From Promethearchaeia archaeon (GTDB taxonomy: Archaea > Asgardarchaeota > Lokiarchaeia > Sigyniarchaeales > SOKP01): a stretch of 64,000 bases of DNA. The translations under genes were made by a program, and so were the position numbers. The stretch's first letter is position 1. Each line of letters begins with the position of its first letter. Shown piece after piece: positions 28,426 to 46,012 of this stretch. Location of the stretch: contig JAHQWJ010000148.1 of NCBI GenBank assembly GCA_029856125.1, positions 8,588 through 72,587 of the forward strand, in the 5' to 3' direction. The notes below the pieces were generated by a model, which searched no databases, was not told the DNA's origin, and saw only the letters and a list, made by a program, of their open reading frames with translations.

Positions 28426-28500
28426 GGGGATGCCAGGTTGTCATAAAGCATATAAATGCTATATATAATAGGAATAGTTTTTAAGAAAAATGATGTGAAT

Positions 28501-29631: not shown

Positions 29632-29766
29632 TTTAGCAAATTAGGACCGGATAGAATATAAAGTTACTTTATAAGGATACTGTATTTTTATTTTTGAACC
29701 TTTGATTTTCTGGAAATTATTCGCTCTAACTCAAGAAATCTTTTTGAAGTAAAACCAAGTCTGAAG

Positions 29767-29834
29767 AATTAAATTTATAATATTTCACCTCATATTATTT
29801 ATTAATTTTAATTAGGAAATATTAAAGTGGGAAA
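29767..29834 (+). promoter_or_regulatory. Conserved upstream region shared with 27101-27168 (TATA-like 'AAATTTATAA')
   Basis: See 27101-27168. Confidence 0.35.
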
Positions 29835-31007
29835 ATGGTAGAAAATAAAGCTGAAATTGAATCATTGTTTAAAAATATGCTAAAAGAAACTGAAAAAAAC
29901 GCTCCAAAAGACGCGATTTATCAGGAGGACATTAAAACTATCGGAACGCTTAAAGTCCAGTGGAAGATTTGTGGTATTTTGGGATATCAAATCTTCGAGC
30001 AAGATAAAGTCTCCTACAAATTTGGAGAAAAATTAGAAAAGCCAGATATATCGTTAGTTATTAGAGATAGCGAGATATCACTCACTTTCTTAAAGGGAGA
30101 ACTCTTTGAATTTGATTACGGCCCGGCTTATGGCGGTAATTTTAAAATCAATCAAACTATCGGATGGAAAGAGATTGAAAAAGAAACGGGTAAAAAAAAT
30201 GCTAGGATAAATAAACCTTTCCTGACAGCCCGATTTAACAAAGAAAAAGAATACCATCCTTATGTCTTATCAAAAATACCTATTTTTAGAAAACTTGTAA
30301 CACAACGAGTATCAGAAGATGATTTTGGAGCATTTATACCTATCAATAAAGCTCTTGGAACATATGAAAGTCAAATCATTCCTCTCAAGGTTTTTAAACA
30401 TTTTATTGATAAAGCGAGTAATATTGTCAAGATGAATGACTGTCCTTGTAGAACATACCATGAATGTAAAGATCACAATCGTGATCTAGGATGTATGCAC
30501 ATGGGTAATGATACGTTAAATTTCCCTTCACCCCATTTCAGGAGTAAAGTTATTTCGAAGGAGGAAGCCTTAGAACATGTTAGACTTTGCATTGAGGACG
30601 GTTTAATTCCATTACTCGGTAGAGTAATGGATGAAGCTGAGGGGTTTGGAGTTCCAGATACGGGACATTTCTTATCAATGTGTTTTTGCTGTCCTTGTTG
30701 CTGTATAGATGGTACTATCGTACAAAATGCCTCAAAAGGTCTAACTACGATTTTTAAAAGGATGGAGGGTATCACTGTGAAAGTTGACGAAGACCTTTGT
30801 GTTGGTTGTGAAGAATGTTTCGAGGTTTGTGTCTTTAATGGGATGGAAATGATTGATAACAAGGCTGTAGTGAACCAGGACAACTGCTTAGGCTGTGGCA
30901 GATGTGAAACCACTTGTCCTAACGAAGCCATCTCTATAACTATTACAGATCTTAGTTACGTTGATAATTTGATTAAAAAATTAGAAGCCCATGTTGATGT
31001 TACCTAA
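29835..31007 (+). CDS. Cys-rich Fe-S protein ('CPCR', 'CFCCPCCC', 2x[4Fe-4S] ferredoxin domain); AT-rich native copy
   Basis: 390 aa with 'CVGCEECFEVC' and 'CLGCGRCETTCP'. The N-terminal ~130 aa look SCP2-like ('KPDISLVIRDSEISLTFLKGEL'). Confidence 0.7.
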   Translation: MVENKAEIESLFKNMLKETEKNAPKDAIYQEDIKTIGTLKVQWKICGILGYQIFEQDKVSYKFGEKLEKPDISLVIRDSEISLTFLKGELFEFDYGPAYGGNFKINQTIGWKEIEKETGKKNARINKPFLTARFNKEKEYHPYVLSKIPIFRKLVTQRVSEDDFGAFIPINKALGTYESQIIPLKVFKHFIDKASNIVKMNDCPCRTYHECKDHNRDLGCMHMGNDTLNFPSPHFRSKVISKEEALEHVRLCIEDGLIPLLGRVMDEAEGFGVPDTGHFLSMCFCCPCCCIDGTIVQNASKGLTTIFKRMEGITVKVDEDLCVGCEECFEVCVFNGMEMIDNKAVVNQDNCLGCGRCETTCPNEAISITITDLSYVDNLIKKLEAHVDVT

Positions 31008-31161
31008 TCTGTTAGTACGTTTAGTTATTCAAAGGATATTTTGATGTTATTTTTTTCTCTTTTTTTTCAAAATCTTATTTGATCCTTTTAACGAATAGTT
31101 ATTTTAATTTTGAAGTTTAACTACACCTATATATAGAAAAAATTAATTTTAGGTTAACTAC

Positions 31162-31584
31162 ATGATCTCAATTCAAAAAGGGGAGGATTTGCTCTCAATT
31201 TCCTTAAGCACCATCTTAAACCATAGGAAAGACGAGCCCGAATTTCAAAAACTTGTTATCGATTGGAACAAGAAGATTCTAATTGATATTGAAGATTTCT
31301 ATCCACTTGAAATTATATTTCATCGCAACGAGATTAAATTTAAAGTAAACGATATCGATAAAAAAGTAGATCTTAAAGTTAAAATGAACATTTACACCCT
31401 TTTAGATTTGGCTTACAGAAGACTAAACCCTGTAAAAGCCGTTTTTCAGCGTAAATTAAGATTTAAGGGATTGTTGAAATTTAGAATTTTATTAAAATTT
31501 ATGAACATTTTTCTGAAAAGCATGCAAATGGTTGCTTCAGACCCTAACAATAAATATTACGAATTAAATAAAGATATTAGGTAA
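31162..31584 (+). CDS. SCP2 (sterol-carrier-protein-2)-like small protein
   Basis: 140 aa with 'VDLKVKMNIYTLLDLAYRRLNPVKAVFQRKLRFKGLL', which fits the SCP2 pattern. Paralog of 34273-34695. Confidence 0.5.
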   Translation: MISIQKGEDLLSISLSTILNHRKDEPEFQKLVIDWNKKILIDIEDFYPLEIIFHRNEIKFKVNDIDKKVDLKVKMNIYTLLDLAYRRLNPVKAVFQRKLRFKGLLKFRILLKFMNIFLKSMQMVASDPNNKYYELNKDIR

Positions 31585-31602
31585 AATGGTGAAAGAAAAC
31601 AT

Positions 31603-33078
31603 ATGACTGCAACAAAGGAAAGAAATTTGTACGAGAAAATAAGGAAGGAGAATGTGTTTAAAAAATTAGGAGAAATATTTGGAAGTAAAAACGTCACAGA
31701 TAAATCTGTAGATTTATATCCTTACTCATACGATATGACCGAATGCGAAGCACACATGCCTGATTTTGTAGTTATTCCTGAAAATTCAGCTCAATTAATC
31801 GAACTAGTAAAATTTTGTAATCAAAATTCCATACCAATTGTACCTTACATATCTGGGAATAACGTTGGAGGTTTGACAATTCCAGAATACGGGGGTGTTG
31901 TCGTCGATTTTAGTAAGAAAATGAACAGAATTCTCCACATCAATGAAAATATGATGTATGCTCTCTTAGAGCCAGGAGTTACCTTCGGAGAATTAAAGAA
32001 ACAGTTAGACGAACATTATCCACATCTAAGATATAGTTACCCATTTGCTCCACCTTACGCAGGAGTGGTTGGAAATGTAATTTTGAGCGGTATGAATAAT
32101 CTTTCGTGTAAACTTGGTTCAATGGGAGATTCTATCAATGGACTAGAAGTTATAACTGCTGATGGCGAACTTATTCGAATTGGTTCTTGCTTTTATGGTA
32201 AGGATACCGCAGATGATGATTCTTGGTGGAGCAGATATCCGATGCCAGATTTAATGGGTTTATTTATCAATTGGCAAGGTATGACGGGTTTAGTAACCAA
32301 ATGCGCCGTACAGTTATGGCCAAATCCCCCTCTTAAGAAAACCTATCTTGGAATTGTTTTCGGCTTACCTGATATCGCACCGGTCATAAGAGAAGTTGGG
32401 AGGACTGAAATTGTTGATGACATTTCAGCAGTAAGTATTGAAGTTGTAAAAATGGCTGTAGAACTTCCAGAACCGGTAAAAATACCTGGTGAACCAGATT
32501 TTGCTGCACTTTTTTCTATTTCTGGGAAAACTGAAAGCCTTTTCAAAGCTAAGGAGGAATATTTAAAGCTAACTATAGAAAATTTGAAGAAAAAGGGCAT
32601 AAAAGTTCTTTTAGTTGATGCTGACGAGTTTACAAAGTTATTCAGTTTAAGAGTAAGATGCCATTTAGATCTACCAGCAGTCATTTTATCGTTAGTAGAA
32701 TATTCGGGGTTAACATGGTTTGGATCCTATGCTCCAACACATAAACTCGAAGATTTAATACCTCAAGTGAACGACCTGTTTATAAAATACAAAGTTCCTC
32801 CATTTATTTACATGAAAATAATGAAGCATTCTCATTATGGAATTTTTCGACCTATCCTTAGATATAATAAATACAAAGATGAGGAAAACATTCATAGCTT
32901 ACTAAACGAGATTGCAGAACTATGCATCGCCGAGGGCTGTATTCCTTATAAGACGCCTGCGTGGATGACGGAAAAAATGCGTGAGATAATCAATCCAGGT
33001 TGGCAAAAATTATTCGACAAAATTAAAAATTGCATTGATCCAAATAAAATATTTAATCCCGGAAGATGGAATACATGA
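31603..33078 (+). CDS. FAD-linked oxidase (PCMH/GlcD-type)
   Basis: 491 aa with 'FVVIPENSAQLIELVKFCNQNSIPIVPYISGNNVGG' and C-terminal 'IDPNKIFNPGRW'. Close paralog of 34706-36181. Confidence 0.75.
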   Translation: MTATKERNLYEKIRKENVFKKLGEIFGSKNVTDKSVDLYPYSYDMTECEAHMPDFVVIPENSAQLIELVKFCNQNSIPIVPYISGNNVGGLTIPEYGGVVVDFSKKMNRILHINENMMYALLEPGVTFGELKKQLDEHYPHLRYSYPFAPPYAGVVGNVILSGMNNLSCKLGSMGDSINGLEVITADGELIRIGSCFYGKDTADDDSWWSRYPMPDLMGLFINWQGMTGLVTKCAVQLWPNPPLKKTYLGIVFGLPDIAPVIREVGRTEIVDDISAVSIEVVKMAVELPEPVKIPGEPDFAALFSISGKTESLFKAKEEYLKLTIENLKKKGIKVLLVDADEFTKLFSLRVRCHLDLPAVILSLVEYSGLTWFGSYAPTHKLEDLIPQVNDLFIKYKVPPFIYMKIMKHSHYGIFRPILRYNKYKDEENIHSLLNEIAELCIAEGCIPYKTPAWMTEKMREIINPGWQKLFDKIKNCIDPNKIFNPGRWNT

Positions 33079-33138
33079 ATCATTATTAAGAATTTTTAAA
33101 AATTCTGTTAATTTATCCAAATAAAGGTGATACATTAA

Positions 33139-34170
33139 ATGATCGAAACAAATATAACAAAAATGTTTGGGATTAAACATCCTATATTTAGCGCTCCAAT
33201 GGGTCCCTTTTTTACCCGCGATTTAGCTCTAGCTGTCAGTGAAGCCGGGGGATTAGGAGTGTTATCAAACGTGAATATAGCTGGTACAGATCCCGTTAAG
33301 GAACATAAAGCAAGCCTTGAACACATGATTGAACATACTGATAAACCGTTCGGTCTTAATATCCTAACATCTCGGAATAATCCTGGAGTGAGACAAATGG
33401 TCAGATCATTACCAAGAATAGTCATGGGTAATGTAAAAATGCGCGATCAGTGTAAATATTGGCTGACTTCGGCAGGTTCTTCAAGAGTTCTCGCAGAATC
33501 GAAAAGTTTTATAGAATTAAGAGAGAATTCAGAAGTTAAACACTTTCACGTTGCTCCAGCTGTATGGTTGGCTCAGAAATGTATAGCTTCAAAAGTAGAT
33601 GGAATAGTGGTGACTGGTACTGAAGGTGGAGGTCATCAATCGTATGAGAGAGTTAGTACTCTTGTTCTACTACAACAGATTAATGAGAAATTCCCTGATT
33701 TGCCAAAGATTGCTTGTGGGGGTTTTGCTACTGGAGAGTCTTTAGCTGCAGCACTTTCGTTAGGTGCAGGAGCAGTAGCAATGGGATCAAGATTTATAGC
33801 TTCTAAGCAGAGCGAATTTCACGAAAAATACAAAGCGTTAATTCCCCCTGGAAATCCGCAAGATACAGGGCTCTATACTGGATCGTTCGGTCCTATTCGG
33901 TTGTATAAAAACGAATACGCATTATCGCATCCTGCGCCCAGTAGTAAAGAGGAAATGATCGCTTACGAAAACTCTATATCTCCAGAACAAAGAGCAAAAG
34001 ATATGGGTGCCTATGATAGGGTATACAATGGGGATATTAATACTGGAGCTGTTTTACTAGGTCAATCAATAGGAATTATTGATAGTATAGAGAATGTCAA
34101 TGATATTATTGAACGAATAATGAAAAACGCTGAAACTGCTATTAGAAGAAATAGTTCCATGTTAAAATAA
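33139..34170 (+). CDS. Nitronate monooxygenase / FabK-like FMN enoyl reductase family protein
   Basis: 343 aa with 'MFGIKHPIFSAPMGPF..DLALAVSEAGGLGVLS' and 'GTEGGGH'. Confidence 0.75.
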   Translation: MIETNITKMFGIKHPIFSAPMGPFFTRDLALAVSEAGGLGVLSNVNIAGTDPVKEHKASLEHMIEHTDKPFGLNILTSRNNPGVRQMVRSLPRIVMGNVKMRDQCKYWLTSAGSSRVLAESKSFIELRENSEVKHFHVAPAVWLAQKCIASKVDGIVVTGTEGGGHQSYERVSTLVLLQQINEKFPDLPKIACGGFATGESLAAALSLGAGAVAMGSRFIASKQSEFHEKYKALIPPGNPQDTGLYTGSFGPIRLYKNEYALSHPAPSSKEEMIAYENSISPEQRAKDMGAYDRVYNGDINTGAVLLGQSIGIIDSIENVNDIIERIMKNAETAIRRNSSMLK

Positions 34171-34272
34171 GACCAAATCTAAACTAAAAATAACCAATTT
34201 ATTCCTTTTTTTATAAATTGGGCAAAAGGTTAATTTGTTTTTAAAAAAAAAAACTAATATAAGTGAATTAAT

Positions 34273-34695
34273 ATGCTTAATATAGAATTCCCGGATGATT
34301 TAATTTCTATATCGTTGTATAATGTTTTCAGTTCGAGGAAGGACGATAGAAAATTTATAAAACACGCGAAAGATTGGAATACAAAAATAGTACTTCATAT
34401 CGAGCCTTTCTATCCCGTGACAGTAATCTTCGACGGTAGTAATATAAGGTTTGAAAGGAAAGAATATCCAAAACCAGACATGAAGGTTAAAATTCATATC
34501 AACACCATGCTTGATATCGCTAACGATAGGTTAAATCCTTTTTTTGCTATTGAAGAAAAAAAAATGGAAATTGAAGGATTAGGTGAAGATAGCGAAAAAA
34601 TTATGCGGTTTTTCAATATTTTTGTCTTATCTATGCAGATGGTAGCTCAAGAGCCTAATGTGAATTATTTTGAATTAAACAAGAATACCAGGTGA
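34273..34695 (+). CDS. SCP2-like small protein
   Basis: 140 aa, co-linear with 31162-31584 ('KPDMKVKIHINTMLDIANDRLNPFFAIEEKKMEIEGL'). Confidence 0.5.
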   Translation: MLNIEFPDDLISISLYNVFSSRKDDRKFIKHAKDWNTKIVLHIEPFYPVTVIFDGSNIRFERKEYPKPDMKVKIHINTMLDIANDRLNPFFAIEEKKMEIEGLGEDSEKIMRFFNIFVLSMQMVAQEPNVNYFELNKNTR

Positions 34696-34705
34696 TATAA
34701 CTCTA

Positions 34706-36181
34706 ATGACAGCAACAAAACAACGAAATGTGTTTGAAAAAATTTCAAAAGATAATGTTTATTCTAAATTAGTCGAGATTTTTGGTAGCGATTATGTTAC
34801 TGATAAAAATGTTGACTTGTACCCCTATTCTCAAGATATGACTGAGAACAAACCTCACATGCCCGATTTTGTGGTTATCCCTGAAAATAAAGAGCAATTA
34901 GTGGAACTAGTTAAGTTTTGTAACGAATATTCAGTTCCATTAGTTCCCTATACCACGGGAAATAATGTTGGAGGGCTTACAATCCCTGATTATGGCGGTA
35001 TTATTGTAGATTTTGGAAAAAGGATGAATAAAATCTTACATGTAGATGACAATATGATGTACGCCCTCTTAGAACCCGGTGTTACCTTTGGTCAACTTAA
35101 GAAACACCTAGATGAGAATTTCCCAAGTCTAAGATATAGCTACCCAAACGCGCCCCCTTACTCAGGTGTAGTTGGAAACGCCTTATTAAGCGGCATGACA
35201 AATTTGGGTGCAAAAATCGGCTCAATGGCAGATGGCATTAATGGTCTTGAGGTTATAACCTTTGATGGAACTGTATCTCGAATTGGATCGTGCTTCTACG
35301 GAAATGATAAATCAGAAGACGATAGCTGGTGGTGTAGATATCCGATGCCTGACCTTATGGGATTATTCGTCAATTGGCAAGGCATGACCGGCTTGATAAG
35401 CAAATGCGCCGTTCAATTATGGCCAAAAGAACCAATTGAAAAACCTCAGCTCGTTGTCTTTTTTGGGTTAACAGATTTAGGTCCTTTTTTGAGAGAGGTA
35501 GGTAGAGCAGATATTGTTAACGATGTTGCTGCATTTTCAGTGGAGGTTGCTAAAATGGAGGTTGGAATACCAGAACCCGTAAGATATCCTGGAGAACCTC
35601 TTTATACTGCCGTAATGCCGATGACGGCAAAAACTGAAAACCAAATGAATGCCAAATTAGAAATTCTTAACGATATAATTGAAAAGCTAAATAAAGAAGG
35701 AACTGATATTCATTTAATTGATTATAACGAGTTTGCTAAGCTTTTTGGTCTAAAAGCTCTCAATATTTACAACTTACCATCACAGATTCTTTCCTTACAC
35801 GAATATAGCGGACTTACGTGGTTTGGCGCCTATGCTCCCTCTCATAAATTTGAAGAATTAATTGAGAAAACAGATGCGTTGTATCATAAACATGGGGTAC
35901 CCCCGTTTAACTATCTTAAGATTATGAAAGGAGGTCATTATGGTATATTTAGACCTATCTTTCGGTTTAAGAAATTTACAGATCAAGACAAAATCGTTAA
36001 GTTATTGGAAGAAATAGCTGATGTTTGTATAGACTTAGGGTGTATACCTTATAAAACGCCATCGTGGTTGACTGCAAAATTGCGTAAGAAAATCAATCCA
36101 GGATGGATTAGTCTTTTTGAAAAGATAAAACATTGTATGGATCCTAATAATATATTTAATCCAGGAAGGTGGAACACATAA
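34706..36181 (+). CDS. FAD-linked oxidase (PCMH/GlcD-type)
   Basis: 491 aa, same length as and co-linear with 31603-33078. Confidence 0.75.
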   Translation: MTATKQRNVFEKISKDNVYSKLVEIFGSDYVTDKNVDLYPYSQDMTENKPHMPDFVVIPENKEQLVELVKFCNEYSVPLVPYTTGNNVGGLTIPDYGGIIVDFGKRMNKILHVDDNMMYALLEPGVTFGQLKKHLDENFPSLRYSYPNAPPYSGVVGNALLSGMTNLGAKIGSMADGINGLEVITFDGTVSRIGSCFYGNDKSEDDSWWCRYPMPDLMGLFVNWQGMTGLISKCAVQLWPKEPIEKPQLVVFFGLTDLGPFLREVGRADIVNDVAAFSVEVAKMEVGIPEPVRYPGEPLYTAVMPMTAKTENQMNAKLEILNDIIEKLNKEGTDIHLIDYNEFAKLFGLKALNIYNLPSQILSLHEYSGLTWFGAYAPSHKFEELIEKTDALYHKHGVPPFNYLKIMKGGHYGIFRPIFRFKKFTDQDKIVKLLEEIADVCIDLGCIPYKTPSWLTAKLRKKINPGWISLFEKIKHCMDPNNIFNPGRWNT

Positions 36182-37359
36182 TGGTTGAAATTAAAGAAGA
36201 TTTAATGGGAAAAGAAGTTTTGGAAATGGCATTTGATCGTTGTATCAAGTGCAGTACTTGTAAATATAGCTACAAGGATTTCGAAAAAATGTGCCCAAGT
36301 GGAGAAAAATTCCTATTCGAATCGTATTGGGCATCAGGCCGAATCAGAATAATACGAGGTGTTTTAAATGGCGATCTGGAGTGGACGGAGGATTTACTAG
36401 ATCCTATTTTTGCTTGTACAACTTGTGGCGCTTGTATGGACGCTTGTCAGGCACCCCACGCGGATTATATTGTCGAGATGATAGAAGCCCTAAGAGAATT
36501 AGCTGTAAAAAACATTGGACCAGCGGAAAACCAAAAATTCTTAGTTACCCGATGCGAAGACAGTTGTAATCCTTACGGCGATCCAAACTCAGATAACGCA
36601 GAGTTGAAAAAAGAGTACGACCTACCGGATAAAGCCGAATGGGTCTATTTTATAGGATGTACCTCAAACTACCGTCAAAAAAGCCTAAGAGATTCTACTC
36701 TGAGGTTTTTGAAAAAAGCGGGTATTGATTTTACATTAATAGACGAACATTGTTGTACAAGCCCTATGATTAGAACTGGTCAATTGAGCATTGTTGATGA
36801 ATATATGAAATATAATATCGATCAAATAAAAAAGGCTGGTGCGACTAAAGTAATCACCTCATGCGCAGGATGTTATAAAACTTTATCGAAAGATTTCGAG
36901 AGGTTTGTAAACGCATTAGAATTTGAAATCTACCATTCGCTCGAATTAGTGAAGAACCTCTTAGACGAGAAAAAGATAGAGTTTAAATTTGAATATAATA
37001 AAACCGTTACCTACCACGATCCGTGCCATTTAGGAAGACACATGGGGGTCTATGAGTTACCAAGAGAGATTTACAAACAGATACCCGGATTAAATTTAGT
37101 AGAAATGAAAAGAAATCGAAATTTTGCGTGGTGTTGTGGTGCAGGCGGCGGAGTGAAAATTGGTTATCCTGATTGGGCGTTAGAGGTTTCTAAAGATCGC
37201 TTAGAAGAAGCACAGGAAACCGGAGCAACGGTTATAACATCAACATGTCCATTCTGTAAAACTAACTTAAGCGACGCTAACGATAATTATAACTTTGATT
37301 TTGAAGTACTTGACCTAATGGAAATCATAGATCAATTGGATATTGAAATTGAGAAGTAA
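36181..37359 (+). CDS. (Fe-S)-binding CCG-domain oxidoreductase, GlcF/HdrD-like
   Basis: 'CIKCSTCKY...CP', 'CTTCGACMDAC', 'CCTS' and 'CCGAGGG'. The ATG at 36181 overlaps the upstream TAA (TAATG). Homolog of 10090-11349. Confidence 0.75.
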   Translation: MVEIKEDLMGKEVLEMAFDRCIKCSTCKYSYKDFEKMCPSGEKFLFESYWASGRIRIIRGVLNGDLEWTEDLLDPIFACTTCGACMDACQAPHADYIVEMIEALRELAVKNIGPAENQKFLVTRCEDSCNPYGDPNSDNAELKKEYDLPDKAEWVYFIGCTSNYRQKSLRDSTLRFLKKAGIDFTLIDEHCCTSPMIRTGQLSIVDEYMKYNIDQIKKAGATKVITSCAGCYKTLSKDFERFVNALEFEIYHSLELVKNLLDEKKIEFKFEYNKTVTYHDPCHLGRHMGVYELPREIYKQIPGLNLVEMKRNRNFAWCCGAGGGVKIGYPDWALEVSKDRLEEAQETGATVITSTCPFCKTNLSDANDNYNFDFEVLDLMEIIDQLDIEIEK

Positions 37360-37494
37360 AAACAAATAGAATTATCACTTTTCCTTAATTTTTTATTCTA
37401 AAATTACTTTTTAGTAAAAATCTTTTTAAACTAATTTAGTAAATTAATAGTAATAATTGATTTTGAAGAGAGATATTGTATAAGGGTGTAAAAT

Positions 37495-38544
37495 ATGGAA
37501 TTAGAAGATGAAAGATTTTCGGAAGACGAAAACCTATGGGAAGACCATAAGATTCCATTGACTTATGATCAAGAGAGTATGACAGAATGGTTTAATGAAA
37601 AAAGAGGGGGGATTAAAGGAAGAGCAGATGTCTTCTATCTTATGTTTGGTATAACATATAACTGTCAGCTCAAATGTCCACATTGTTGTGTGGGTAATTA
37701 TAAAAATGAACCGCGTCGGGAACTTTCAACGGATGAAATTAAGGACATATTAGATCAATCTGCTAAAGCTTTTGTGGTCAACTTCTTTGGAGGTGAACCA
37801 ACCATGAGAGCAGACATAATGGAATTAATAAAATACGCTTCAGAAAGAGCTGTATACGTATTTTGTGATACAAATGGATTAAAAATCACGAAGGATTTTG
37901 CAAGACAATTAAAGGATAGCGGTTTAGAAATGCTTTATGTTAGCATCGATAGTCCAATTCCAGAAAAACACGATCAATTGCGCGGAATGAAAGGAACATA
38001 TAATAAAGCCGTTCAGGGTATAAAAAATGCGCTTGAAGTGAGACTAAAATGTTGTCTTTCAACTTATGTAACCAAAGAAAATCTAGCTAACGGTGAATTT
38101 GAAGATGTAATCAAATTTGCAAGAGAGTTAGGGGCAAATGGAGTGAGATATTTATTACCTACCCCAGCGGGTAGATGGTTATATAATCCTGAGGTAAAAT
38201 TAACGCCTCAAGAAGAGAGAAAGGTTAGAAAAATTGCGACATTTCCATATGTATGTAGAGATTTTTATTTTCAAACTCAAAGTTCAAATCAATGCAGGGG
38301 AATAGCAGATAACGTGTATTTTTATATTTCGCCTTATGGAGATGTCCAGCCTTGCTGCTTCATGCCACTTACTTTCGGAAATGTTAGGGAAGAACCTCTG
38401 AAAACAATTTTAGAAAGAATGTGGGGGCACCCAATGATGTGCGAAAGTTGGACAAAAAAAGAATGCCCGATGTTACATGAAGAATTCAGGAGCAAATATA
38501 TAGAAACTATTCCTCCTAAAGCTAAACTACCATTTAAAATGTAA
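37495..38544 (+). CDS. Radical SAM protein with C-terminal SPASM/twitch-like Cys-rich domain
   Basis: 349 aa with 'CQLKCPHCC' (CxxxCxxC), 'NFFGGEPT', and C-terminal Cys residues 'QCRG......YGDVQPCCFMP'. Confidence 0.75.
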   Translation: MELEDERFSEDENLWEDHKIPLTYDQESMTEWFNEKRGGIKGRADVFYLMFGITYNCQLKCPHCCVGNYKNEPRRELSTDEIKDILDQSAKAFVVNFFGGEPTMRADIMELIKYASERAVYVFCDTNGLKITKDFARQLKDSGLEMLYVSIDSPIPEKHDQLRGMKGTYNKAVQGIKNALEVRLKCCLSTYVTKENLANGEFEDVIKFARELGANGVRYLLPTPAGRWLYNPEVKLTPQEERKVRKIATFPYVCRDFYFQTQSSNQCRGIADNVYFYISPYGDVQPCCFMPLTFGNVREEPLKTILERMWGHPMMCESWTKKECPMLHEEFRSKYIETIPPKAKLPFKM

Positions 38545-38560
38545 AGATTATTATATATTA

Positions 38561-38677
38561 TCAAATTTATCTGAGGCTTTGGTACACTACAATTTCGATT
38601 TCCAGGTATTGGATTTGATGGAAATTTTGGATCAGATTGAAATTATTTTCCATTTAGGGAATAATCATTCAGATTAA
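38561..38677 (+). pseudogene. Remnant of the 3' end of a GlcF/HdrD-like CCG gene
   Basis: Hand translation 'SNLSEALVHYNFDFQVLDLMEILDQIEIIFH..' matches the C-terminus of 36181-37359 ('TNLSDANDNYNFDFEVLDLMEIIDQLDIEIEK'). No upstream ORF body is present. Confidence 0.7.
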
Positions 38678-38781
38678 GCCTTACAATTAGTTTCTATGTA
38701 ATAATTGCAAATACATTTAAATTGAGTGAAATTCTAATGTACCCTAACACTTGATATAACAACATTTAGAGTGAGAAAAGG

Positions 38782-39282
38782 ATGAAGTATAAAAGAAATC
38801 AATATTCTGAAGGAGTAAGCGTTTGCTCCTTCATTATAGCAGGTATTTTAATTTATATGGGAACTAACGATATATTTGTACCCCTTTGGGCAGGTACGGA
38901 TATAAATTGGTGGGGGCTTGTCTGGATTGGCATTGCAGCAGCAATAATAATAGGACAGATCGCAGCGTTGGCTAACAAAAGTAAGTTAAGAAACGCAGTT
39001 TTATACGAATACGAGGAACATCCGGAAGCAACCATCGATCAAATTAGTCAAAACACGGGAATTACGATAAGAGACGTACAAGCCATAGTATTAGACCTAA
39101 AAGCAAATGGCTTATTACGAGGTAAATTCTCTTCTACTACAGGACAAATGACGCATGCAGATATTATAAAAAAACCCCAAGAAGAAGTTTCAGAAGGAAA
39201 AGTAGTTTATTGTCCTAATTGTGGAACCGCCAAAGTTAAAGAATCGGCTATTTTTTGCTCGTATTGCGGAACTAAATTATAA
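38782..39282 (+). CDS. Membrane protein with wHTH-like middle region and C-terminal zinc ribbon
   Basis: 166 aa with two hydrophobic helices, 'IDQISQNTGITIRDVQAIVLDLKANGLL' and 'CPNCGT....CSYCGTKL'. Confidence 0.5.
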   Translation: MKYKRNQYSEGVSVCSFIIAGILIYMGTNDIFVPLWAGTDINWWGLVWIGIAAAIIIGQIAALANKSKLRNAVLYEYEEHPEATIDQISQNTGITIRDVQAIVLDLKANGLLRGKFSSTTGQMTHADIIKKPQEEVSEGKVVYCPNCGTAKVKESAIFCSYCGTKL

Positions 39283-39331
39283 TATTTTAGTACGATAATG
39301 TGCTGTATGTATGTACGCTACTAAACAGCCA

Positions 39332-39341
39332 TTTTTTTTTT
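39332..39341 (+). terminator. Oligo-T tract (10 T), candidate terminator
   Basis: Located about 50 nt after the stop at 39282. Confidence 0.3.
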
Positions 39342-39415
39342 CATCGATAGAGTTAATTATTAAATATTTCACGAATAGTAAATATCATATTAACTAAAAT
39401 TTAAAGTGATAAATA

Positions 39416-40897
39416 ATGGCAATAATTGAAACAAAATCCGGTAAAGTTCAAGGTTACATCGAAAATGATGTAGAAGTATATAAGGGCATTCCTTATGCTG
39501 AACCTCCTATTGACGATTTACGTTTTAGCCCCCCAGTTATGAAAAAGCCTTGGGATGGTGTGCTTGAAGCTAAAGAGTATAGTCCTTTTGCATTTCAAGG
39601 CTACTCGATGCTTGAAGATTATTTTGGCAAAAATGAGCCTGAAAGCGAAGATTGCTTGTACCTAAATATTTGGACTCCAGTAGCAGACAATGAGAAGCGC
39701 CCAGTGATGTTCTGGATTCACGGGGGAGCTTTTATAACCGGAGGCGGAGGAGTTCCGATCTATGATGGGTCAGTCTTAGCCAAACGTGGTGATGTAGTGG
39801 TGGTTACCATTAACTACCGATTAGGAGCTTTTGGATATTCCTACATTCCAGGAGTTACTGCCAATGTTGGGCAATTGGATCAAATAATGGCTCTTGAATG
39901 GGTTCGAGATAATATTGAAAAGTTTGGTGGTGATCCAGAAAACGTGACTATTTTCGGTGAATCTGCAGGAGGTTATGCGGTTCTCACTTTATCTGCTATG
40001 TCCGCTGCTAAAGGTCTTTTCCATCGTGTGATTGCCCAAAGCGCTCCGTTTATTAATCCAAAAGTAACTGAGAAACATACTAAAGGTTTGATGAAAATGT
40101 TGAACCTTAAGAAGGGGGATATAGACGCCTTTCGAAAAACTCCTCCGGAAGATATTATTGATGTCCAAAATAAATACCTTGAAAAAATAAACTCAGCAAT
40201 GGAATTCAGGCCTTTAATCGATGGTGTCTCTCTTCCAATACACCCATTAAAAGTATTTCAAAATGGCGATTGCTTAAATATAGATTTTATGATAGGGAGT
40301 AATTTAGACGAAGCTAAAATGTTTACTTCAATGGGAGGGGAAGTATTTGCTAATCCTGAAAAAGCAATATTAATGTTTTTAGGTATGTTTGGAATTGATG
40401 CAACTAATAGTGCCAAAATGTACGAAACTTATAAAAAGGCAAGGGAGGGTAATCTTTCTACTGATCCAAAAGACATTGCAGATGCGATTATAACAGATTT
40501 CATGTTTCGCATTCCTACAATACGTTTCCTCGAAGCTCAATTTAAACACCAAAAAAATACCTATAATTATTTGTTCACGTGGGAATCTCCAGGATTTGAT
40601 GGACAATTAGGATCTTGTCATGCCCTTGAACTTGCATTTGTTTTTGACACTCTGAACATTCCTGGAATGGAAAATTTTACGGGTCAAGGTCCAGAAGCAG
40701 AATTGTTAAGCCAAAAAATAATGGATGCTTGGATAGCTTTTGCTCGTACAGGAAATCCCAATCATGAAGGATTACCGGAATGGCAATCTTATGATACTGA
40801 AAAAAGAGCGACAATGTGTTTAGGAAAAGACTGTAAACAAGTTACTGCTGCTTACGATAAAGAAAGAGAAGCCTGGGATGGGTTCTTAGAAGTTTAA
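39416..40897 (+). CDS. Type-B carboxylesterase (para-nitrobenzyl esterase-like)
   Basis: 493 aa with 'GIPYAEPP', 'EDCLYLNIW', 'HGGAF' and the nucleophile elbow 'FGESAGG'. Confidence 0.85.
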   Translation: MAIIETKSGKVQGYIENDVEVYKGIPYAEPPIDDLRFSPPVMKKPWDGVLEAKEYSPFAFQGYSMLEDYFGKNEPESEDCLYLNIWTPVADNEKRPVMFWIHGGAFITGGGGVPIYDGSVLAKRGDVVVVTINYRLGAFGYSYIPGVTANVGQLDQIMALEWVRDNIEKFGGDPENVTIFGESAGGYAVLTLSAMSAAKGLFHRVIAQSAPFINPKVTEKHTKGLMKMLNLKKGDIDAFRKTPPEDIIDVQNKYLEKINSAMEFRPLIDGVSLPIHPLKVFQNGDCLNIDFMIGSNLDEAKMFTSMGGEVFANPEKAILMFLGMFGIDATNSAKMYETYKKAREGNLSTDPKDIADAIITDFMFRIPTIRFLEAQFKHQKNTYNYLFTWESPGFDGQLGSCHALELAFVFDTLNIPGMENFTGQGPEAELLSQKIMDAWIAFARTGNPNHEGLPEWQSYDTEKRATMCLGKDCKQVTAAYDKEREAWDGFLEV

Positions 40898-40990
40898 CCA
40901 ATTACAATCTGATTTTATTTTTTTATTTATCTTTGTTATTTTCTGAGAAGATTTTATCAGATAATCATAAAAAATTAGTTCAATCACTCA

Positions 40991-41209
40991 TTACCAGGCA
41001 AAATGTTTTAGTATCGCATTAGTGGGGCACGCGTCTTGGCAAGCTAAGCATTCGATGCAATCAATAATATCTTCGGCAACAACTTTACCGTTTACAAGAC
41101 TGTAGACCTCTGCCGGGCAACCACTGACACAATTCGATGCTCCTACGCAGCGATCTAAATCTACTTCTACCCAATTGTCGCCATCTTCCCATCTTTTTAC
41201 ATTTACCAT
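40991..41209 (-). CDS. 2x[4Fe-4S]-type ferredoxin
   Basis: 72 aa with 'CVGASNCVSGCP' and 'CIECLACQDACP'. Confidence 0.75.
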   Translation of the reverse strand: MVNVKRWEDGDNWVEVDLDRCVGASNCVSGCPAEVYSLVNGKVVAEDIIDCIECLACQDACPTNAILKHFAW

Positions 41210-41281
41210 ATTATTTTCTATTTTGGTAATAAATTATTTAAAATTAATTAAAAAAAAAGTAAAAAATAAGATTTATTTCTC

Positions 41282-42382
41282 TTAAGCACTTTGAGCATTA
41301 GCATTGACACTGCCAGTAGATGTTTTTAATGAAAACACATATCTATACATCGCATCTCCGTAGTTTAAAGTCGAGTAAACGCTTCCTAAACTTGTGATCT
41401 CCATAGTTGCGTGAGGTGTGTAATTAAGTGATCCTAGACTAGTTGAACCAACAAATTTAACATTGGTGTTAATTAAATTATCTCTATAAAGCACATCAAC
41501 GCTTCCTGTGGAAGTTTCCCAACTACCGGTTACATTTGCATCCATAGAGATATACTGATAAATTTCCGCATCGATACTACCTGTAGACGTTTTTAGATTT
41601 AAACTAATGTCTTTTGTGTATACCATATTATAACACTTGAAGGTCACACTGCCTGTGGAAACTGTTCCTATTAAATCATCCCCCATTAAACAGTTTGTAT
41701 AGTTTAACGATAACGATCCCGTTGATGTTAGAGCTCGAAAACCGCTGGTAAAATTAGTGTTAGCGGCAAAAGATTCTACGCTACCCGTGCTACTCGCGAG
41801 TCTAACTTTTCCTTGGAACTCGTTGTTTCCTAATGTTGTTAATTTGATTGAGCCCGTGCTTGAAGTTAATGAAGTTCCATTTAGAATGACATCATCAGAA
41901 ACCAGCATTTCAATAGATCCTACAGAAATTAAGGCGGTGAGATCGTATACTACATCTGTTCGTAAAGTAACAGCGACAGTAATGTTATATGATTTAAACC
42001 AATGCGATGGATTGAACCAGGCATCTGGTAGAGCTTGGAGATTAAAGATACCAGTCGTATTATCCCACCATTGTGTACTTGGATGAAAGAAATCCGTGTA
42101 TGTCTTTCCTTCCATATACAAGCCTGCAACTTCTATGTTTACATCGATTTTAGCGTAAGACGTAGTTGGAGTAGTATTATATGTAAAGAGAATTTTTCCG
42201 ATGTCTACATTGAAGGTAAGTTCTTCTATCGGATCGGGAGAACTTGGCTCGTACGAAAAATTAAACGAGTTTTCGATACTCCCTGAAGTTGCGAAACCGT
42301 AGATAACGAATCCTGCACCGCCACCTACAATTAGAGCAACTGCAATAATTAGAGCAATTTTATAATTTCTCATTTTTTTCAC
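41282..42382 (-). CDS. N-terminally anchored DUF4097-like ('toast-rack' beta-structure) repeat protein
   Basis: 366 aa with an N-terminal TM helix and about 9 '[ST]STGS[IVL]' repeats at about 20-aa spacing. Confidence 0.55.
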   Translation of the reverse strand: MKKMRNYKIALIIAVALIVGGGAGFVIYGFATSGSIENSFNFSYEPSSPDPIEELTFNVDIGKILFTYNTTPTTSYAKIDVNIEVAGLYMEGKTYTDFFHPSTQWWDNTTGIFNLQALPDAWFNPSHWFKSYNITVAVTLRTDVVYDLTALISVGSIEMLVSDDVILNGTSLTSSTGSIKLTTLGNNEFQGKVRLASSTGSVESFAANTNFTSGFRALTSTGSLSLNYTNCLMGDDLIGTVSTGSVTFKCYNMVYTKDISLNLKTSTGSIDAEIYQYISMDANVTGSWETSTGSVDVLYRDNLINTNVKFVGSTSLGSLNYTPHATMEITSLGSVYSTLNYGDAMYRYVFSLKTSTGSVNANAQSA

Positions 42383-42561
42383 AATAATTTTATTTGTTTT
42401 TTTTTAAATTACTTAATAGTGAAAGATTTTGGATTATATTTAAATGAAATTTAGACTGATTTTTATAAAGATCTCTGATGATATAAACTTTAATGCAAAA
42501 ATTGCCCCTTAAATAGCATTTTATGATAATTATTCATAAAAGCTTGTTAAAAAAAATGAAT

Positions 42562-43092
42562 TTAGAGATTTTTAATTAAAGAAGTAGCAAAATTCTTAGC
42601 ATTTTCGAGATCTATTTCATTAGGACGGCCTTTCATTTTCTCCATATCTTTTATCGCTTTCTCTTTTTGATCTTCCGGCAATTTTTCTAACATCCCTAAC
42701 TGAGTCTCTAAAGGAATGCCTAAATTCTCTCCAACGCAATCGAATTTTCCAATAATTTCACAATTATGTTCTTTAGCGATATTATTGATCCGCTTAAATG
42801 GTTCTTGATATAGTTTTAAACTTGCATGAGTACAAAAATAAGCGAGTTTCGCAGGGAGATCAGGAACAGCTTTTTTTACCAGAGTTAATACTGATTTATC
42901 AATTCGACTGGCATAAACTCCTGAGCCTAAAAACACAATATCGTATGAGTTCAATGTTTTAGGTTCAACATCTTTAACAGGAATCATGTCCACATCGTGG
43001 TCTGTTAAGCCGTCTTTCAAGCTATTTGCTACTTTTTCGGTATTTCCCGTATTTGAAAAAAAAGTAATTAAAATCTTCAATTTATACATCAA
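42562..43092 (-). CDS. Flavodoxin-like protein
   Basis: 176 aa with N-terminal 'ILITFFSNTGNTEKVA' and 'FLGSGVY'. Confidence 0.6.
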   Translation of the reverse strand: MMYKLKILITFFSNTGNTEKVANSLKDGLTDHDVDMIPVKDVEPKTLNSYDIVFLGSGVYASRIDKSVLTLVKKAVPDLPAKLAYFCTHASLKLYQEPFKRINNIAKEHNCEIIGKFDCVGENLGIPLETQLGMLEKLPEDQKEKAIKDMEKMKGRPNEIDLENAKNFATSLIKNL

Positions 43093-43185
43093 CTCTTTAT
43101 AGTAGAATAAAAATAAGAAATTTTTATGATTTTAAGATTTATGTAAAAAAAGCAATCTATAAACTGCTCATCAGATTAGAGACAA

Positions 43186-44094
43186 TTAACTTTCTACTTC
43201 TATTTTGAAGAAGTTTATAGCATTTTCAACAGTTATTCTACTTACTTCTTGTTGAGAGGTATTGTGAGAATAAGCAATTGCCGCTATAGAATATTTTACA
43301 TTTAAGGGCACATTTACGGGGCCTCTTAGATAAGGATGCTGGTAGTAACTATCTGTTTCTGTAACTAAAGCAGATAATGGAGATTGTTTTGTCACTCTAC
43401 GCCATTTGTTAATCCCATAAGCTGAACTTGGAACTGATAAAGTGTATCCTTGTTTGGGCAAACTTATTCCATACTCGTCTGGACCGGAGAAACAATGCCA
43501 CATAACGCGTTTAGGACTTATATTAAAGTCTTTAATTATATTAAGAATTTCTTTTGTTGCGCCATCCTTTTTATTATATCGATGCTGAGGGTGGTCTCGA
43601 TCAAATTCGTGCTCAGCTGCATTTCTAACATGTAGAACATAGGGTTTATTAATCTCCTCTGTTAATTCGAATATTTTTTTTAGTTCTGTAACCTGTTTTT
43701 CTCGTTTTTCAAGAGTTTTTGCGTGATGAAAATCCAAACCAATTTCTCCAATAGCCAGTAAGTTTTCCTTATATTTTTGAACATTTTCAACCCAATCTTT
43801 CCAATCTCTATTGTATTGGAGTTTAGCAGTGTAGGTGACAGTTTGAGGCGCCCAACCAATTGTAAAACCAATTTTCTCCTTTCCTTTAATAAAATTTAGG
43901 ATTAATTCAAGAGTACTATTATTGATCGAGCTGGTTACTAAGTACACGCCTCCATTATTCAAGAAGTCTCGATATTGCTGCTCATCAGAAGGTAATCTAT
44001 CGTTTTTTTTAGGTCGAGGGAATGGTAGGTGACAATGAACATCGATAATTTTCAGATTTTCTTCTGGTTCTGGGATATTGATTTTCTTGGTCAT
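43186..44094 (-). CDS. tatD: TatD-family metal-dependent hydrolase
   Basis: 'IDVHCHL', 'GEIGLDFHH', 'VLHVRNA', 'HCFSG' and 'ETDSYY'. Confidence 0.8.
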   Translation of the reverse strand: MTKKINIPEPEENLKIIDVHCHLPFPRPKKNDRLPSDEQQYRDFLNNGGVYLVTSSINNSTLELILNFIKGKEKIGFTIGWAPQTVTYTAKLQYNRDWKDWVENVQKYKENLLAIGEIGLDFHHAKTLEKREKQVTELKKIFELTEEINKPYVLHVRNAAEHEFDRDHPQHRYNKKDGATKEILNIIKDFNISPKRVMWHCFSGPDEYGISLPKQGYTLSVPSSAYGINKWRRVTKQSPLSALVTETDSYYQHPYLRGPVNVPLNVKYSIAAIAYSHNTSQQEVSRITVENAINFFKIEVES

Positions 44095-44223
44095 AGGGTC
44101 ACAAAACTATAATATGGAATTTATTTTATGATGAAGTTGTTCTAATAATTTAATCTTTGTTCAAATATCAAATTAAGGGGGGTAATAAAATTTTTAATCA
44201 ATCAACTTTATTTAGATGATATA

Positions 44224-44637
44224 ATGACCGAACAATTAGAATCGAAACTAAAAGAGTTAGAAATTAAAAAACTGGAGTTACAACCTAAAATTGATGAGAT
44301 TGAAGCGAGAAAAGCTGAGGAAATCCAAGAATTAAACAAAAAATACGATCACATGATCCAGGACGCTAATAGTGAAGTTGACGATTTTGAACAGAAAATT
44401 ATGAACGAAATTATTGATTTATTTTCGAAAGCCGTGATGGATGAGTTTGACGCCAAAAGAAGCACAAGTGAATATACAGTTACAGAAAATTTTAAAGATT
44501 TTAGGGAGGGCGTTTCGAAAATTGATCTTTTTCCAAGAGATTTAATAGAGAGATTAGATAAGGTCATCGAAGGCGGCCTTATAGAAAATGTGGCCTACGA
44601 TTTAGAAAAAATCGAAGCAAGCTATAAGAGAAATTAG
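44224..44637 (+). CDS. Hypothetical coiled-coil protein
   Basis: 137-aa ORF, E/K-rich, with no recognised motif. Confidence 0.4.
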   Translation: MTEQLESKLKELEIKKLELQPKIDEIEARKAEEIQELNKKYDHMIQDANSEVDDFEQKIMNEIIDLFSKAVMDEFDAKRSTSEYTVTENFKDFREGVSKIDLFPRDLIERLDKVIEGGLIENVAYDLEKIEASYKRN

Positions 44638-44951: not shown

Positions 44952-45515
44952 TTAACAGATATTCAATATTTCTTCAATAATTTTCTTAATATAAGATATG
45001 CAATCCTCTAATTTACCTTTTCTTGGAATATGAATAAAAATCACAGGGTAATTATTTTTTGAAATATCTAAAGCCCAATGGTATATATAATTACATAAAT
45101 AGAATCCAGGAAAATAAGAAATAGAGAGCCTTAAGCTATCTTTGAGAGCTTTATAAATTTCTTTTATATTTAAAATTGTATTAAATTTTATTGATTTTTT
45201 TATATTAATAAAACCCATTTTATAAAATCCATCCACATCTTTACCAAAAGCCAAATTTAATGAAAATTTTTCTAAATAAATTCTTTTTTTTGAATGGATT
45301 CCCATAAGTATAACTAAATACGGTTTTACTTTAGTTGACTTTAAGAATTCTAGGTATGACTTGACGCACCTTTTCCAACTAACAGGTAAAATGATTTTTT
45401 CAATAGAATACTGTTGAAAGTTATCATCAAAGTATCTAACAATATCACCACTAAGATTTGAAGAAAGTTTCCCAAATTTCTCAAAACCAGTTAAAAGTAT
45501 CGTATTTTTTATCAT
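44952..45515 (-). CDS. pcp: Pyroglutamyl peptidase I (peptidase C15) family protein
   Basis: 'ILLTGFEKFG', 'YLEKFSLN', 'GFYLCNYIY' and 'IFIHIP' match the Glu-Cys-His contexts. Confidence 0.6.
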   Translation of the reverse strand: MIKNTILLTGFEKFGKLSSNLSGDIVRYFDDNFQQYSIEKIILPVSWKRCVKSYLEFLKSTKVKPYLVILMGIHSKKRIYLEKFSLNLAFGKDVDGFYKMGFINIKKSIKFNTILNIKEIYKALKDSLRLSISYFPGFYLCNYIYHWALDISKNNYPVIFIHIPRKGKLEDCISYIKKIIEEILNIC

Positions 45516-45592
45516 TTACCCATGAAGTGTAAAAATTCATTAAAAGTAGAAAATCTATTAGTAAAAAATAAAAGGATAATAAAAATACACAT

Positions 45593-46012
45593 TTATTCTA
45601 CGGTTTTGCTTTTTAGTTCATCTGCTTCCAATTTGTCCAATTTTTTCCTCAAAGCTTTAATGTCTGTCTCGTAAGATTTTATTTTTGTCTTTTTCTCTTT
45701 GAGGATATTGTCCAGTTTCTTATTTAAAGCTTTAGTCTTTCCCTTAACTAAATTATCGTATTTCTTTTTTAATGAAGATACTTCCACAGTTAATTTATTC
45801 ATTTTTTTTGTCCATTCTTTAGATTTTTCTGTGGCTTCTTTTAAATCTACTTCACCCACTTCAAGTTTAGATTTGGTATCGTTAATCTTATCATCAAAAT
45901 CAGCTTCAATTTCTTTCTCAGCAGAAGCCTCCTTTTTAGAGGCGTCCTCTTCAACCCTCGTAATCTCGTCTTCCTTTTCTGAGATTTGCGTCCTAATTTC
46001 TTGTTCTGACAT
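45593..46012 (-). CDS. Hypothetical Lys/Glu-rich coiled-coil protein
   Basis: 139-aa ORF with heptad-like K/E pattern. Confidence 0.4.
   Translation of the reverse strand: MSEQEIRTQISEKEDEITRVEEDASKKEASAEKEIEADFDDKINDTKSKLEVGEVDLKEATEKSKEWTKKMNKLTVEVSSLKKKYDNLVKGKTKALNKKLDNILKEKKTKIKSYETDIKALRKKLDKLEADELKSKTVE

Follow-up and report, generated by a model that had tools for sequence, protein, structure and literature searches.

A short reading frame that resembles the C terminus of an intact gene stands directly behind a radical SAM gene in a Promethearchaeota (Lokiarchaeia-type Asgard) MAG, and the question that this locus raises is how a gene end came to lie there, 1300 nt from the end that it resembles. 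We analyzed the locus within a 64,000-nt stretch of one contig (the window, to which positions refer unless another sequence is named), together with the genome around it (3.69 Mb, 32.7% G+C, 153 contigs) and related genomes, among them the named relatives Loki_b31 (G042), ABR02 (G020), and 33X4 (G016). The first-pass annotation had taken the fragment for the decayed end of a diverged paralog, left over from a third copy of the neighboring gene module. Our comparisons indicate that it is very probably the native 3′ end of the adjacent CCG gene, displaced by 1.3 kb when radical SAM DNA from a related clade entered the locus and brought a replacement gene end with it.

Results

Layout of the locus

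The local gene order is SCP2a (31162), FAD oxidase a (31603), NMO (33139), SCP2b (34273), FAD oxidase b (34706), and CCG (36181), followed by the radical SAM/SPASM gene, the fragment, a Zn-ribbon gene, a type-B carboxylesterase gene (39416), and a small ferredoxin gene on the minus strand. The CCG gene occurs among these genomes with two types of 3′ end, an a-type (...LDLMEILDQIEINVLN*) and a b-type (...LDLMEIIDQLDIEIEK*), where the asterisk is the stop codon. The features of the region are, as we read them:

36181–37259, plus strand: body of the CCG/HdrD-like Fe-S gene, probably native (recipient-type); 91.9% nucleotide identity to the G007 ortholog over 1082 nt
37259–37271, plus strand: left junction, a probable in-frame homologous crossover directly 3′ of the CPFC codons (37246–37257)
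37271–37359, plus strand: probable grafted b-type CCG tail (...LDLMEIIDQLDIEIEK*) of donor origin, the current functional 3′ end; recognized by the identity contrast between body and tail
37360–37494, plus strand: 135-nt spacer that probably arrived with the radical SAM gene; 94 to 97% identical to G042 and G051
37495–38544, plus strand: radical SAM/SPASM gene (349 aa; Pfam Radical_SAM and SPASM), the putative insertion cargo
38545–38565, plus strand: putative donor 3′ flank (AGATTATTATATATTATC) and right junction; CAAA at 38562–38565 is common to donor-like and recipient-like sequences
38561–38645, plus strand: the fragment, probably the displaced native a-type CCG 3′ end; 28 codons homologous to 37261–37344 at an offset of 1300 nt
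38645–38646, plus strand: probable deletion joint, at which 107 nt present in G007 are missing (the last four codons and stop of the a-type tail and the intergenic spacer)
38643–38781, plus strand: predicted promoter and 5′ leader of the Zn-ribbon gene, with a TATA-like ACATTTAAATT ~55 nt before the ATG
38782–39282, plus strand: Zn-ribbon membrane-protein gene (Pfam Zn_ribbon_3), the native downstream neighbor of CCG; 87 to 92% amino acid identity to G007, G003, G049, and G016

The fragment is homologous to the end of the adjacent CCG gene

The frame that starts at 38561 reads SNLSEALVHYNFDFQVLDLMEILDQIEIIFHLGNNHSD*, and 16 nt separate it from the radical SAM stop codon (38542–38544). Its first 28 residues align with residues 365 to 392 of the CCG protein, with 19 of 28 identical and 26 of 28 positive (BLASTP, E = 2e-12), and the resemblance to the neighboring C terminus described in the first-pass annotation is thus borne out. 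The 13 identities that it counted in the core NFDF.VLDLMEI.DQ are also correct, although the core spans 15 residues, not 16. When the whole 3.69-Mb genome was searched by tblastn, the best non-self match of the fragment was the adjacent CCG tail (E = 2.4e-8), and the second was a paralog on contig C18 (61%-identical), which matched the fragment at 37% identity. In register, the fragment and the present tail share 52 of 84 nucleotides, a level that none of 100,000 shuffles reached. Codon positions 1, 2, and 3 are identical in 19, 25, and 8 of the 28 codons, so that the differences lie mainly at third positions, as had been noted. Local nucleotide alignment of the fragment with the neighboring tail was weakly significant (z = 2.8), and the signal therefore sits at the level of protein and codons.

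The match covers less of the frame than the first-pass annotation had compared. CCG homology stops at 38644/38645, four codons and a stop short of a complete a-type tail, and the last ten codons of the open frame (IFHLGNNHSD*) are not CCG sequence but part of the Zn-ribbon promoter and leader. An alignment that had been proposed with the other CCG gene of the window (10090–11349, minus strand) gave no similarity, with a score below the shuffle mean. Upstream, within the radical SAM gene, the fragment's frame is full of stops and we found no homology there, in agreement with the earlier statement that no gene body precedes it; the remnant has neither a start nor a body of its own.

Collinear relatives carry the fragment as the end of their only CCG gene

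Genome G007, from the same genus, is collinear with window positions 28000–44500 at 88 to 92% nucleotide identity. It contains both SCP2-FAD pairs, NMO, one CCG gene, the Zn-ribbon gene, and the ferredoxin gene, and it is without the radical SAM gene. Window positions 38562–38645 match the 3′ end of its CCG gene (L047rc 11809–11892) at 90.5% over 84 nt (E = 2.4e-27). In register, 75 of 84 nucleotides and 24 of 28 third positions are identical, against 52 of 84 and 8 of 28 for the present tail of the window. The counterpart of the fragment consists of the last 84 coding bases of the G007 gene, excluding the final four codons and the stop, and the gene that ends with this sequence is the ortholog of the CCG gene adjacent to the fragment in the window. 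The situation in G049 is alike, with 85% identity between the fragment and the end of its CCG gene. Each of the two genomes has two SCP2-FAD modules, and no further one, with a single CCG gene at the locus; neither contains the radical SAM gene.

No intact third copy is kept in these relatives; they show instead that the sole CCG gene of the second module ends with the fragment. The synteny comparison suggested in the first-pass annotation thus yielded what the annotation itself had named as counterevidence, a different, intact gene that contains the stretch, in the sense that this gene is the neighboring gene's ortholog and the stretch its end. The reading as a diverged paralog gives way to orthology (89 to 90% nucleotide identity) with the G007 CCG 3′ end. 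When 36181–37260 was joined in silico to 38561 and the sequence that follows, a seamless in-frame G007-like ORF resulted. In G007, 107 nt separate the counterpart of the fragment from the Zn-ribbon leader and gene; in the window the fragment abuts the leader directly, and 38646–39287 matches G007 L047rc 12000–12640. These sequence comparisons make the fragment, in all likelihood, the a-type end that the adjacent CCG/HdrD-like gene once had.

The adjacent CCG gene combines a recipient-type body with a donor-type tail

The CCG gene starts with an ATG at 36181 that overlaps the FAD-oxidase stop codon (an alternative GTG at 36169 appears in the ORF list) and is called as 392 aa in independent assemblies. 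Its product contains two CCG cysteine-rich stretches (E = 1.2e-35) and an N-terminal Fer4_8, 2×[4Fe-4S] ferredoxin domain (Pfam), and it scores below the cutoffs of all NCBIfam equivalogs (TfrB, LdhH, GlpC, and GlcF). The two parts of the gene have opposite affinities. Relative to G007, a representative of what we call clade 1, the body (to 37263) is 91.9% identical and the tail 68%. Relative to G016 the pattern is reversed, with 76% for the body and 91.8% for the tail. Against the clade-2 genomes the body reaches 76% nucleotide identity, and the tail is 94 to 97% identical to G042 and G051. The gene is thus a natural chimera.

The crossover was placed with informative sites at which G007 and G049 agree with each other and differ from G042, G051, G016, G050, and G004. 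Up to 37259, 17 of 20 such sites are recipient-like; from 37271 on, all 26 of 26 are donor-like. This switch puts the crossover within 12 nt after the CPFC codons, in frame. Three scattered donor-like sites upstream of it (37215, 37230, and 37245) could be patchy heteroduplex or simple mutations. Sliding identity agrees: relative to G007 it is ~0.91 up to 37200 and 0.88 to 0.93 from 38600 on, and relative to G042 and G051 it reaches 0.94 to 0.97 only within 37300–38565, with 0.6 to 0.8 before this interval in the case of G042.

The exchanged tip is the 32-residue end beyond the second CCG domain, and neither a polymorphic toxin domain nor an immunity gene is part of it. Because the fragment and the present tail share just 8 of 28 third positions, the two tail types must be old alleles, and both occur in both clades. 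In G052 a b-like tail stands immediately before the Zn-ribbon leader. With tail types old in both clades and this b-like tail in G052, histories more complex than a single insertion are possible.

The radical SAM tract is clade-2 DNA in a clade-1 background

The tract 37264–38561 is present end to end in G042 and G051 at 94 to 95% identity. In G042 the contiguous order is SCP2-FAD-CCG(b-tail)-rSAM-CN hydrolase, and the divergent G043 (77%) has radical SAM and CN-hydrolase genes in the same neighborhood. Orthologous flanks of the window and the clade-2 genomes are 68 to 76% identical. An insert at ~95% between flanks at 68 to 76% marks the tract as clade-2 DNA in a clade-1 (G007-like) background. 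Among 42 genomes of the genus, we found no clade-1 genome that carries the block with the divergence typical of clade 1. The spacer, which is also present upstream of the same radical SAM gene in G008, G020, and G016, probably holds the radical SAM promoter.

The radical SAM protein is nearest to the AhbD, NirJ, and PqqE models but lies below every equivalog cutoff (best NCBIfam score, 146 bits against a cutoff of 500). Its gene is 93.6 to 95.5% identical to the clade-2 copies, which are 93 to 97% identical to one another. Third-position identity is 86 to 91%, which shows that the gene is intact and under purifying selection. Orthologs at 63 to 65% occur in Jord-, Frey-, Thor-, and Hodarchaeota, pointing to a gene family that is old in Asgard archaea. 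At this locus, by contrast of insert and flanks, the gene appears to be a recent import from another clade and not an old partner of the FAD-oxidase/CCG module, and functional inference from gene adjacency should therefore be tempered.

The right junction shows microhomology and the remnant has lost its stop codon

After the radical SAM stop, G042, G051, and G050 read TAAAGATTGTAATATATTATCTAA up to the breakpoint and AAAAGATT... beyond it, G007 reads ...TGTAAGACAAATTTAGCTGAC, and the window reads ...TTATCAAATTTATCTGAGG. In the three donor-like genomes, the sequence 3′ of the stop (AGATTGTAATATATTATCTAA, then AAAAGATT...) leads on to the CN-hydrolase gene. The window matches this flank to ...TTATC and continues with AAATTTATCTGAGG, which equals ...GACAAATTTAGCTGACG of G007. 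Every BLAST match to G042, G051, and G050 ends at 38565. The joint thus consists of 1 to 4 nt of microhomology, 17 to 20 nt beyond the radical SAM stop; as both parents share only C/AAA there, it is best described as illegitimate. The present right boundary could also have arisen from a larger initial insertion, for example one with the CN-hydrolase gene, that was trimmed by a later deletion.

Similar short words, GATTGAAATT and TGAAGATTT, lie at the two edges of the 107-nt deletion. The Zn-ribbon leader beyond it is conserved upstream of the Zn-ribbon orthologs in G003, G007, G016, G049, and G052, with a different sequence to its left in each. Since the T-rich stretch that follows the radical SAM stop in the donor was cut off, the remnant is probably transcribed solely as radical SAM 3′ UTR, and we take it to have no function. 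To this extent the first-pass annotation is supported, which had described a decayed CCG 3′ end and had linked the loss of its body to the radical SAM gene's arrival or to a deletion.

The leader block 38643–38763 recurs elsewhere in the genome, at 80% identity over 121 nt (contig C140:20438–20558; L001 6439–6559, minus strand), where it stands upstream of an unrelated 196-aa membrane-protein gene; the repeated block may be a regulatory element common to both genes, or the promoter may have been copied. On the same contig, a long low-complexity array of NQNQYMNL(R/L)-type repeats (C140:44215–45093) lies downstream of an ORF at 45097–45615. Two independent assemblies (L069 and L070) have three clustered substitutions at the window equivalent of 38709–38712, upstream of the TATA-like box.

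Alternative origins of the fragment

Some features speak for the idea that a third CCG paralog lost its body by deletion or overwriting and left the fragment as its end: 32 of 84 nt are different in the present tail and third positions are saturated, so that the fragment, taken by itself, resembles an old paralog, and the SCP2-FAD module is duplicated nearby. It is nevertheless very improbable. The one CCG gene of G007 and of G049 ends in sequence 85 to 90% identical to the fragment and stands in the same relation to the Zn-ribbon leader as the fragment does, the neighboring CCG body is orthologous to theirs and its present tail is foreign, no other CCG paralog in the genome resembles the fragment, and no CCG 5′ remnant follows the first FAD oxidase gene (33078–33139). 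Replacement of the CCG body by a 5.5-kb block was rejected for the same lack of a 5′ remnant at 33078–33139, and because G007 is collinear with NMO-SCP2b-FADb in place. We also considered whether the stretch is functional, either as a small ORF (TTG at 38579 to 38677, 32 aa) that encodes a radical SAM/SPASM precursor peptide or as a structured RNA. Small peptide substrates are often encoded beside radical SAM/SPASM enzymes, and the frame is open for 38 codons; the frame, though, runs from a gene end into a promoter leader, and downstream of the orthologous radical SAM gene in seven of seven other genomes the sequence is different and unrelated. A search of Rfam at a permissive threshold gave nothing but chance-level matches, and the RNA fold of 38545–38781 is ordinary (z = −0.45). 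Together these results leave a functional element exceedingly improbable. A chimeric assembly of two co-occurring related species, joined at shared CCG sequence, has next to no probability: although the MAG has an estimated contamination of 6% and comes from environments rich in congeners, the right junction offers no shared k-mer that could mislead an assembler, and exact-protein look-up recovered ten ENA, JGI, and Logan contigs that represent different samples and several assemblers (MEGAHIT, SPAdes, JGI, Logan), agree in gene order, contain both junctions, and show 0 to 5 differences in the 1612 nt of 37200–38812. The homology relations, the two junctions, and the donor-like and recipient-like affinities are read directly from sequence that independent assemblies share.

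Two further explanations concern the direction and means of the change, and we regard each as improbable. The window arrangement might be ancestral, with the radical SAM block lost from G007 and G049 by recombination between the tail copies; flanking direct repeats can mediate deletion, and G050 shows that the radical SAM gene is deletable. Vertical inheritance cannot, however, yield a block ~95% identical to clade 2 between flanks of 68 to 76%; the two tails, at only 62% identity, are poor substrates for homologous deletion; and G007 keeps 107 nt that are missing from the window. The other explanation is site-specific integration of a mobile cassette, with an attachment site overlapping the CCG 3′ end. 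Integrative elements target the 3′ ends of tRNA or protein genes (att sites) and bring a replacement end, for which they need an integrase, an identical att core, and a fixed site. The likeness is close: a donor 3′ end keeps the target gene intact, and such elements leave exactly this outcome, a restored gene end and, beyond the insert, the displaced old end that forms a direct repeat with it. The block also occurs at several positions in different genomes. Against this, the 1.3-kb insert and its neighbors contain no integrase or other recombinase (the sole ORF in 37264–38561 is the radical SAM gene), the repeats have no identical core longer than 8 nt, and the crossover points differ in every lineage, at four places in four lineages, so that tests for integrase, identical core, and fixed site were all negative. 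We likewise found no relative of the radical SAM gene on viral contigs. A mobile radical SAM cassette with fixed ends was rejected because left ends and crossovers vary by lineage and because the radical SAM and CN-hydrolase genes are resident in G042, G043, and G051.

Displacement of the native CCG end by donor DNA is thus the reading that we retain. That the event was an insertion and not a loss is suggested by parsimony and by the identity contrasts between MAG contigs, and a one-step mechanism is our inference from the same pattern.

Related events at the same interval in other lineages

Mirror-image events were found in G008 and G020, both of which have an intact CCG gene with an a-type tail on a clade-2 body and, before the radical SAM gene, a b-type remnant of 24 codons (G008) or 13 codons (G020). 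The crossovers lie at ~37177–37215 in G008, ~37285–37314 in G020, and ~36300 (window equivalent) in G051, compared with 37259–37271 in the window. In G051 (L063, contig C60, 3228 to about 5300), flanks of clade-2 type (90 to 96% identical to G042) enclose a clade-1-like SCP2b-FADb-CCG 5′ segment. A clade-2 genome with a clade-1 segment implies gene flow opposite to that seen in the window. A vague GTGG..TAG..ATT resemblance at the left junction of G051, considered as a displaced CCG 5′ remnant, was judged not robust. At least four lineages have used the CCG 3′ region as an anchor, and genes have moved between the two clades in both directions.

More generally, the interval from CCG to a conserved gene for a 366-aa repeat protein holds different cargo in every genome examined: small ORF pairs, Zn-ribbon, radical SAM, CN-hydrolase, and ligase-like genes, and in the window also the carboxylesterase gene. 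With different cargo downstream of CCG in each genome and crossovers in several lineages, the region is recombinationally very active, as the first-pass annotation had proposed.

Several observations concern single genomes. In G050 (L064, contig C52, 3017–3298), a b-type tail is followed by the spacer up to the window equivalent of 37482 and then by the last 67 nt of the block (38499–38565); the radical SAM coding region appears to have been lost, leaving an internal deletion scar. In G016 (L024, contig C24), the window equivalent of 37370–37414 is present twice (11457–11501 and 13518–13562, BLAST coordinates); situated between CCG and the radical SAM gene, the duplicates flank an insert of two small ORFs and the leader with the Zn-ribbon gene. 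An ATA replaces the ATG start of G016's radical SAM gene (13641). Small ORFs of 94 to 113 aa, some of them paired, follow CCG in relatives (L025 1263–1547, minus strand; L065 of G004; L024 11635–12309). These ORFs of the variable interval gave no NCBIfam match, and their toxin–antitoxin-like look is an impression from size and pairing. The type-B carboxylesterase gene (39288–40901) is a second lineage-specific insertion; in G007, G003, G049, and G052 the Zn-ribbon gene is followed directly by the small ferredoxin gene. The strain variant L068 (ena:ERZ27251135) differs from the window at only five positions in 7,050 nt; they are all confined to a 34-nt stretch of the grafted CCG tail (window equivalent 37275–37308), a cluster that suggests a short tract converted by another b-type allele.

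Discussion

Proposed mechanism

The ancestral order would have been G007-like (...SCP2b-FADb-CCG-(107 nt)-leader-ZnR-Fer4). Donor DNA would have come from a distinct clade of the same Lokiarchaeia-type genus, with a G042-like resident arrangement of CCG (b-type tail), spacer, radical SAM gene, and CN-hydrolase gene. At the left end, homologous recombination inside CCG, just after the CPFC codons (37259–37271), would have kept the reading frame and added the donor tail. At the right end, an illegitimate join through 1 to 4 nt of microhomology would have connected the donor DNA to nearly the same point of the recipient CCG gene, so that the last ~32 codons of the recipient were shifted 1300 nt downstream and not deleted. 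A deletion of 107 nt, later or simultaneous, would then have removed the last codons and stop of the remnant and fused it to the Zn-ribbon leader.

Comparison with known systems

A homologous, in-frame left junction combined with a microhomology joint on the right is the signature of homology-facilitated illegitimate recombination (HFIR). PMC5361080 cites de Vries & Wackernagel 2002, Prudhomme et al. 2002, and Meier & Wackernagel 2003 for this process, and PMC3240628 treats it in E. coli conjugation. The common elements are a homologous junction, a joint of few bases, and a foreign tract, the anchor here being the CCG 3′ region and the joint CAAA. HFIR is known by experiment in transformable bacteria and usually deletes recipient DNA. 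The present case comes from comparative genomics of an uncultivated Asgard archaeon, and here the recipient segment survives in a shifted position. The pattern fits HFIR with C-terminal displacement and would represent an ordinary recombination scar in a new, well-resolved instance.

C-terminal displacement is described for rhs genes, and orphan cdiA-CT/rhs-CT modules are likewise described (PMC2935791 and PMC3150448). As at our locus, a new 3′ end is placed on a conserved body, the old end persists downstream as an orphan, and the events recur at one locus in different lineages. The rhs and CDI systems swap polymorphic toxin tips and immunity genes under diversifying selection, whereas the element exchanged here is the functionally conservative 32-residue end of a metabolic Fe-S protein, which seemingly acted just as a homology arm, with a radical SAM gene as cargo. 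In Vibrio cholerae, type VI secretion (T6SS) effector-immunity modules are displaced sequentially, and PMC5361080 proposes HFIR as the mechanism. There, too, a conserved upstream gene is the anchor, modules enter beside it, and what stood there before, 3′ remnants as well as older downstream genes, ends up farther away. T6SS loci serve bacterial competition with selectable immunity genes, and no such selective logic is evident in the window. Finally, the locus resembles xenologous or in situ gene displacement, as in mosaic operons, in that foreign coding sequence was grafted in frame onto a resident gene; it differs in that just the last ~32 codons were replaced, the displaced original is still visible, and the junctions are placed at base-pair resolution.

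Significance and orphan tails elsewhere in the genome

The annotation of the locus is corrected in that no third module was lost. The window offers a well-resolved case of probable homology-anchored gene transfer between Asgard species, with both junctions, both parental types, and reciprocal cases at hand, in a group whose recombination mechanisms are at present readable from genomes only. One-sided gene acquisition, anchored by homology at one end and closed illegitimately at the other, might generally leave orphan 3′ tails as a countable footprint in Lokiarchaeia-type Asgard archaea, a generalization that we hold tentatively, at somewhat less than even probability. If it is true, such scars would allow recombination between species to be measured at base-pair resolution in these uncultivated relatives of eukaryotes.

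When the genome was scanned crudely for orphan C-terminal tails, about ten candidates besides the fragment itself came up. Five of these tails, at C4:6829–6918(−), C18:130976–131044(+), C11:699–791(−), C116:10359–10448(−), and C142:51547–51648(−), lie 0.3 to 5.5 kb downstream of intact genes with a similar end, and those on C4 and C18 share the layout of gene, intervening gene, and orphan tail. The 487-aa gene that intervenes at the C4 locus is absent from G007, whose own version of the upstream gene (70%-identical) runs without a break into the sequence of the orphan tail. This suggests the same kind of displacement, in which a divergent allele and a new gene would have come in and the old end would have been left behind.
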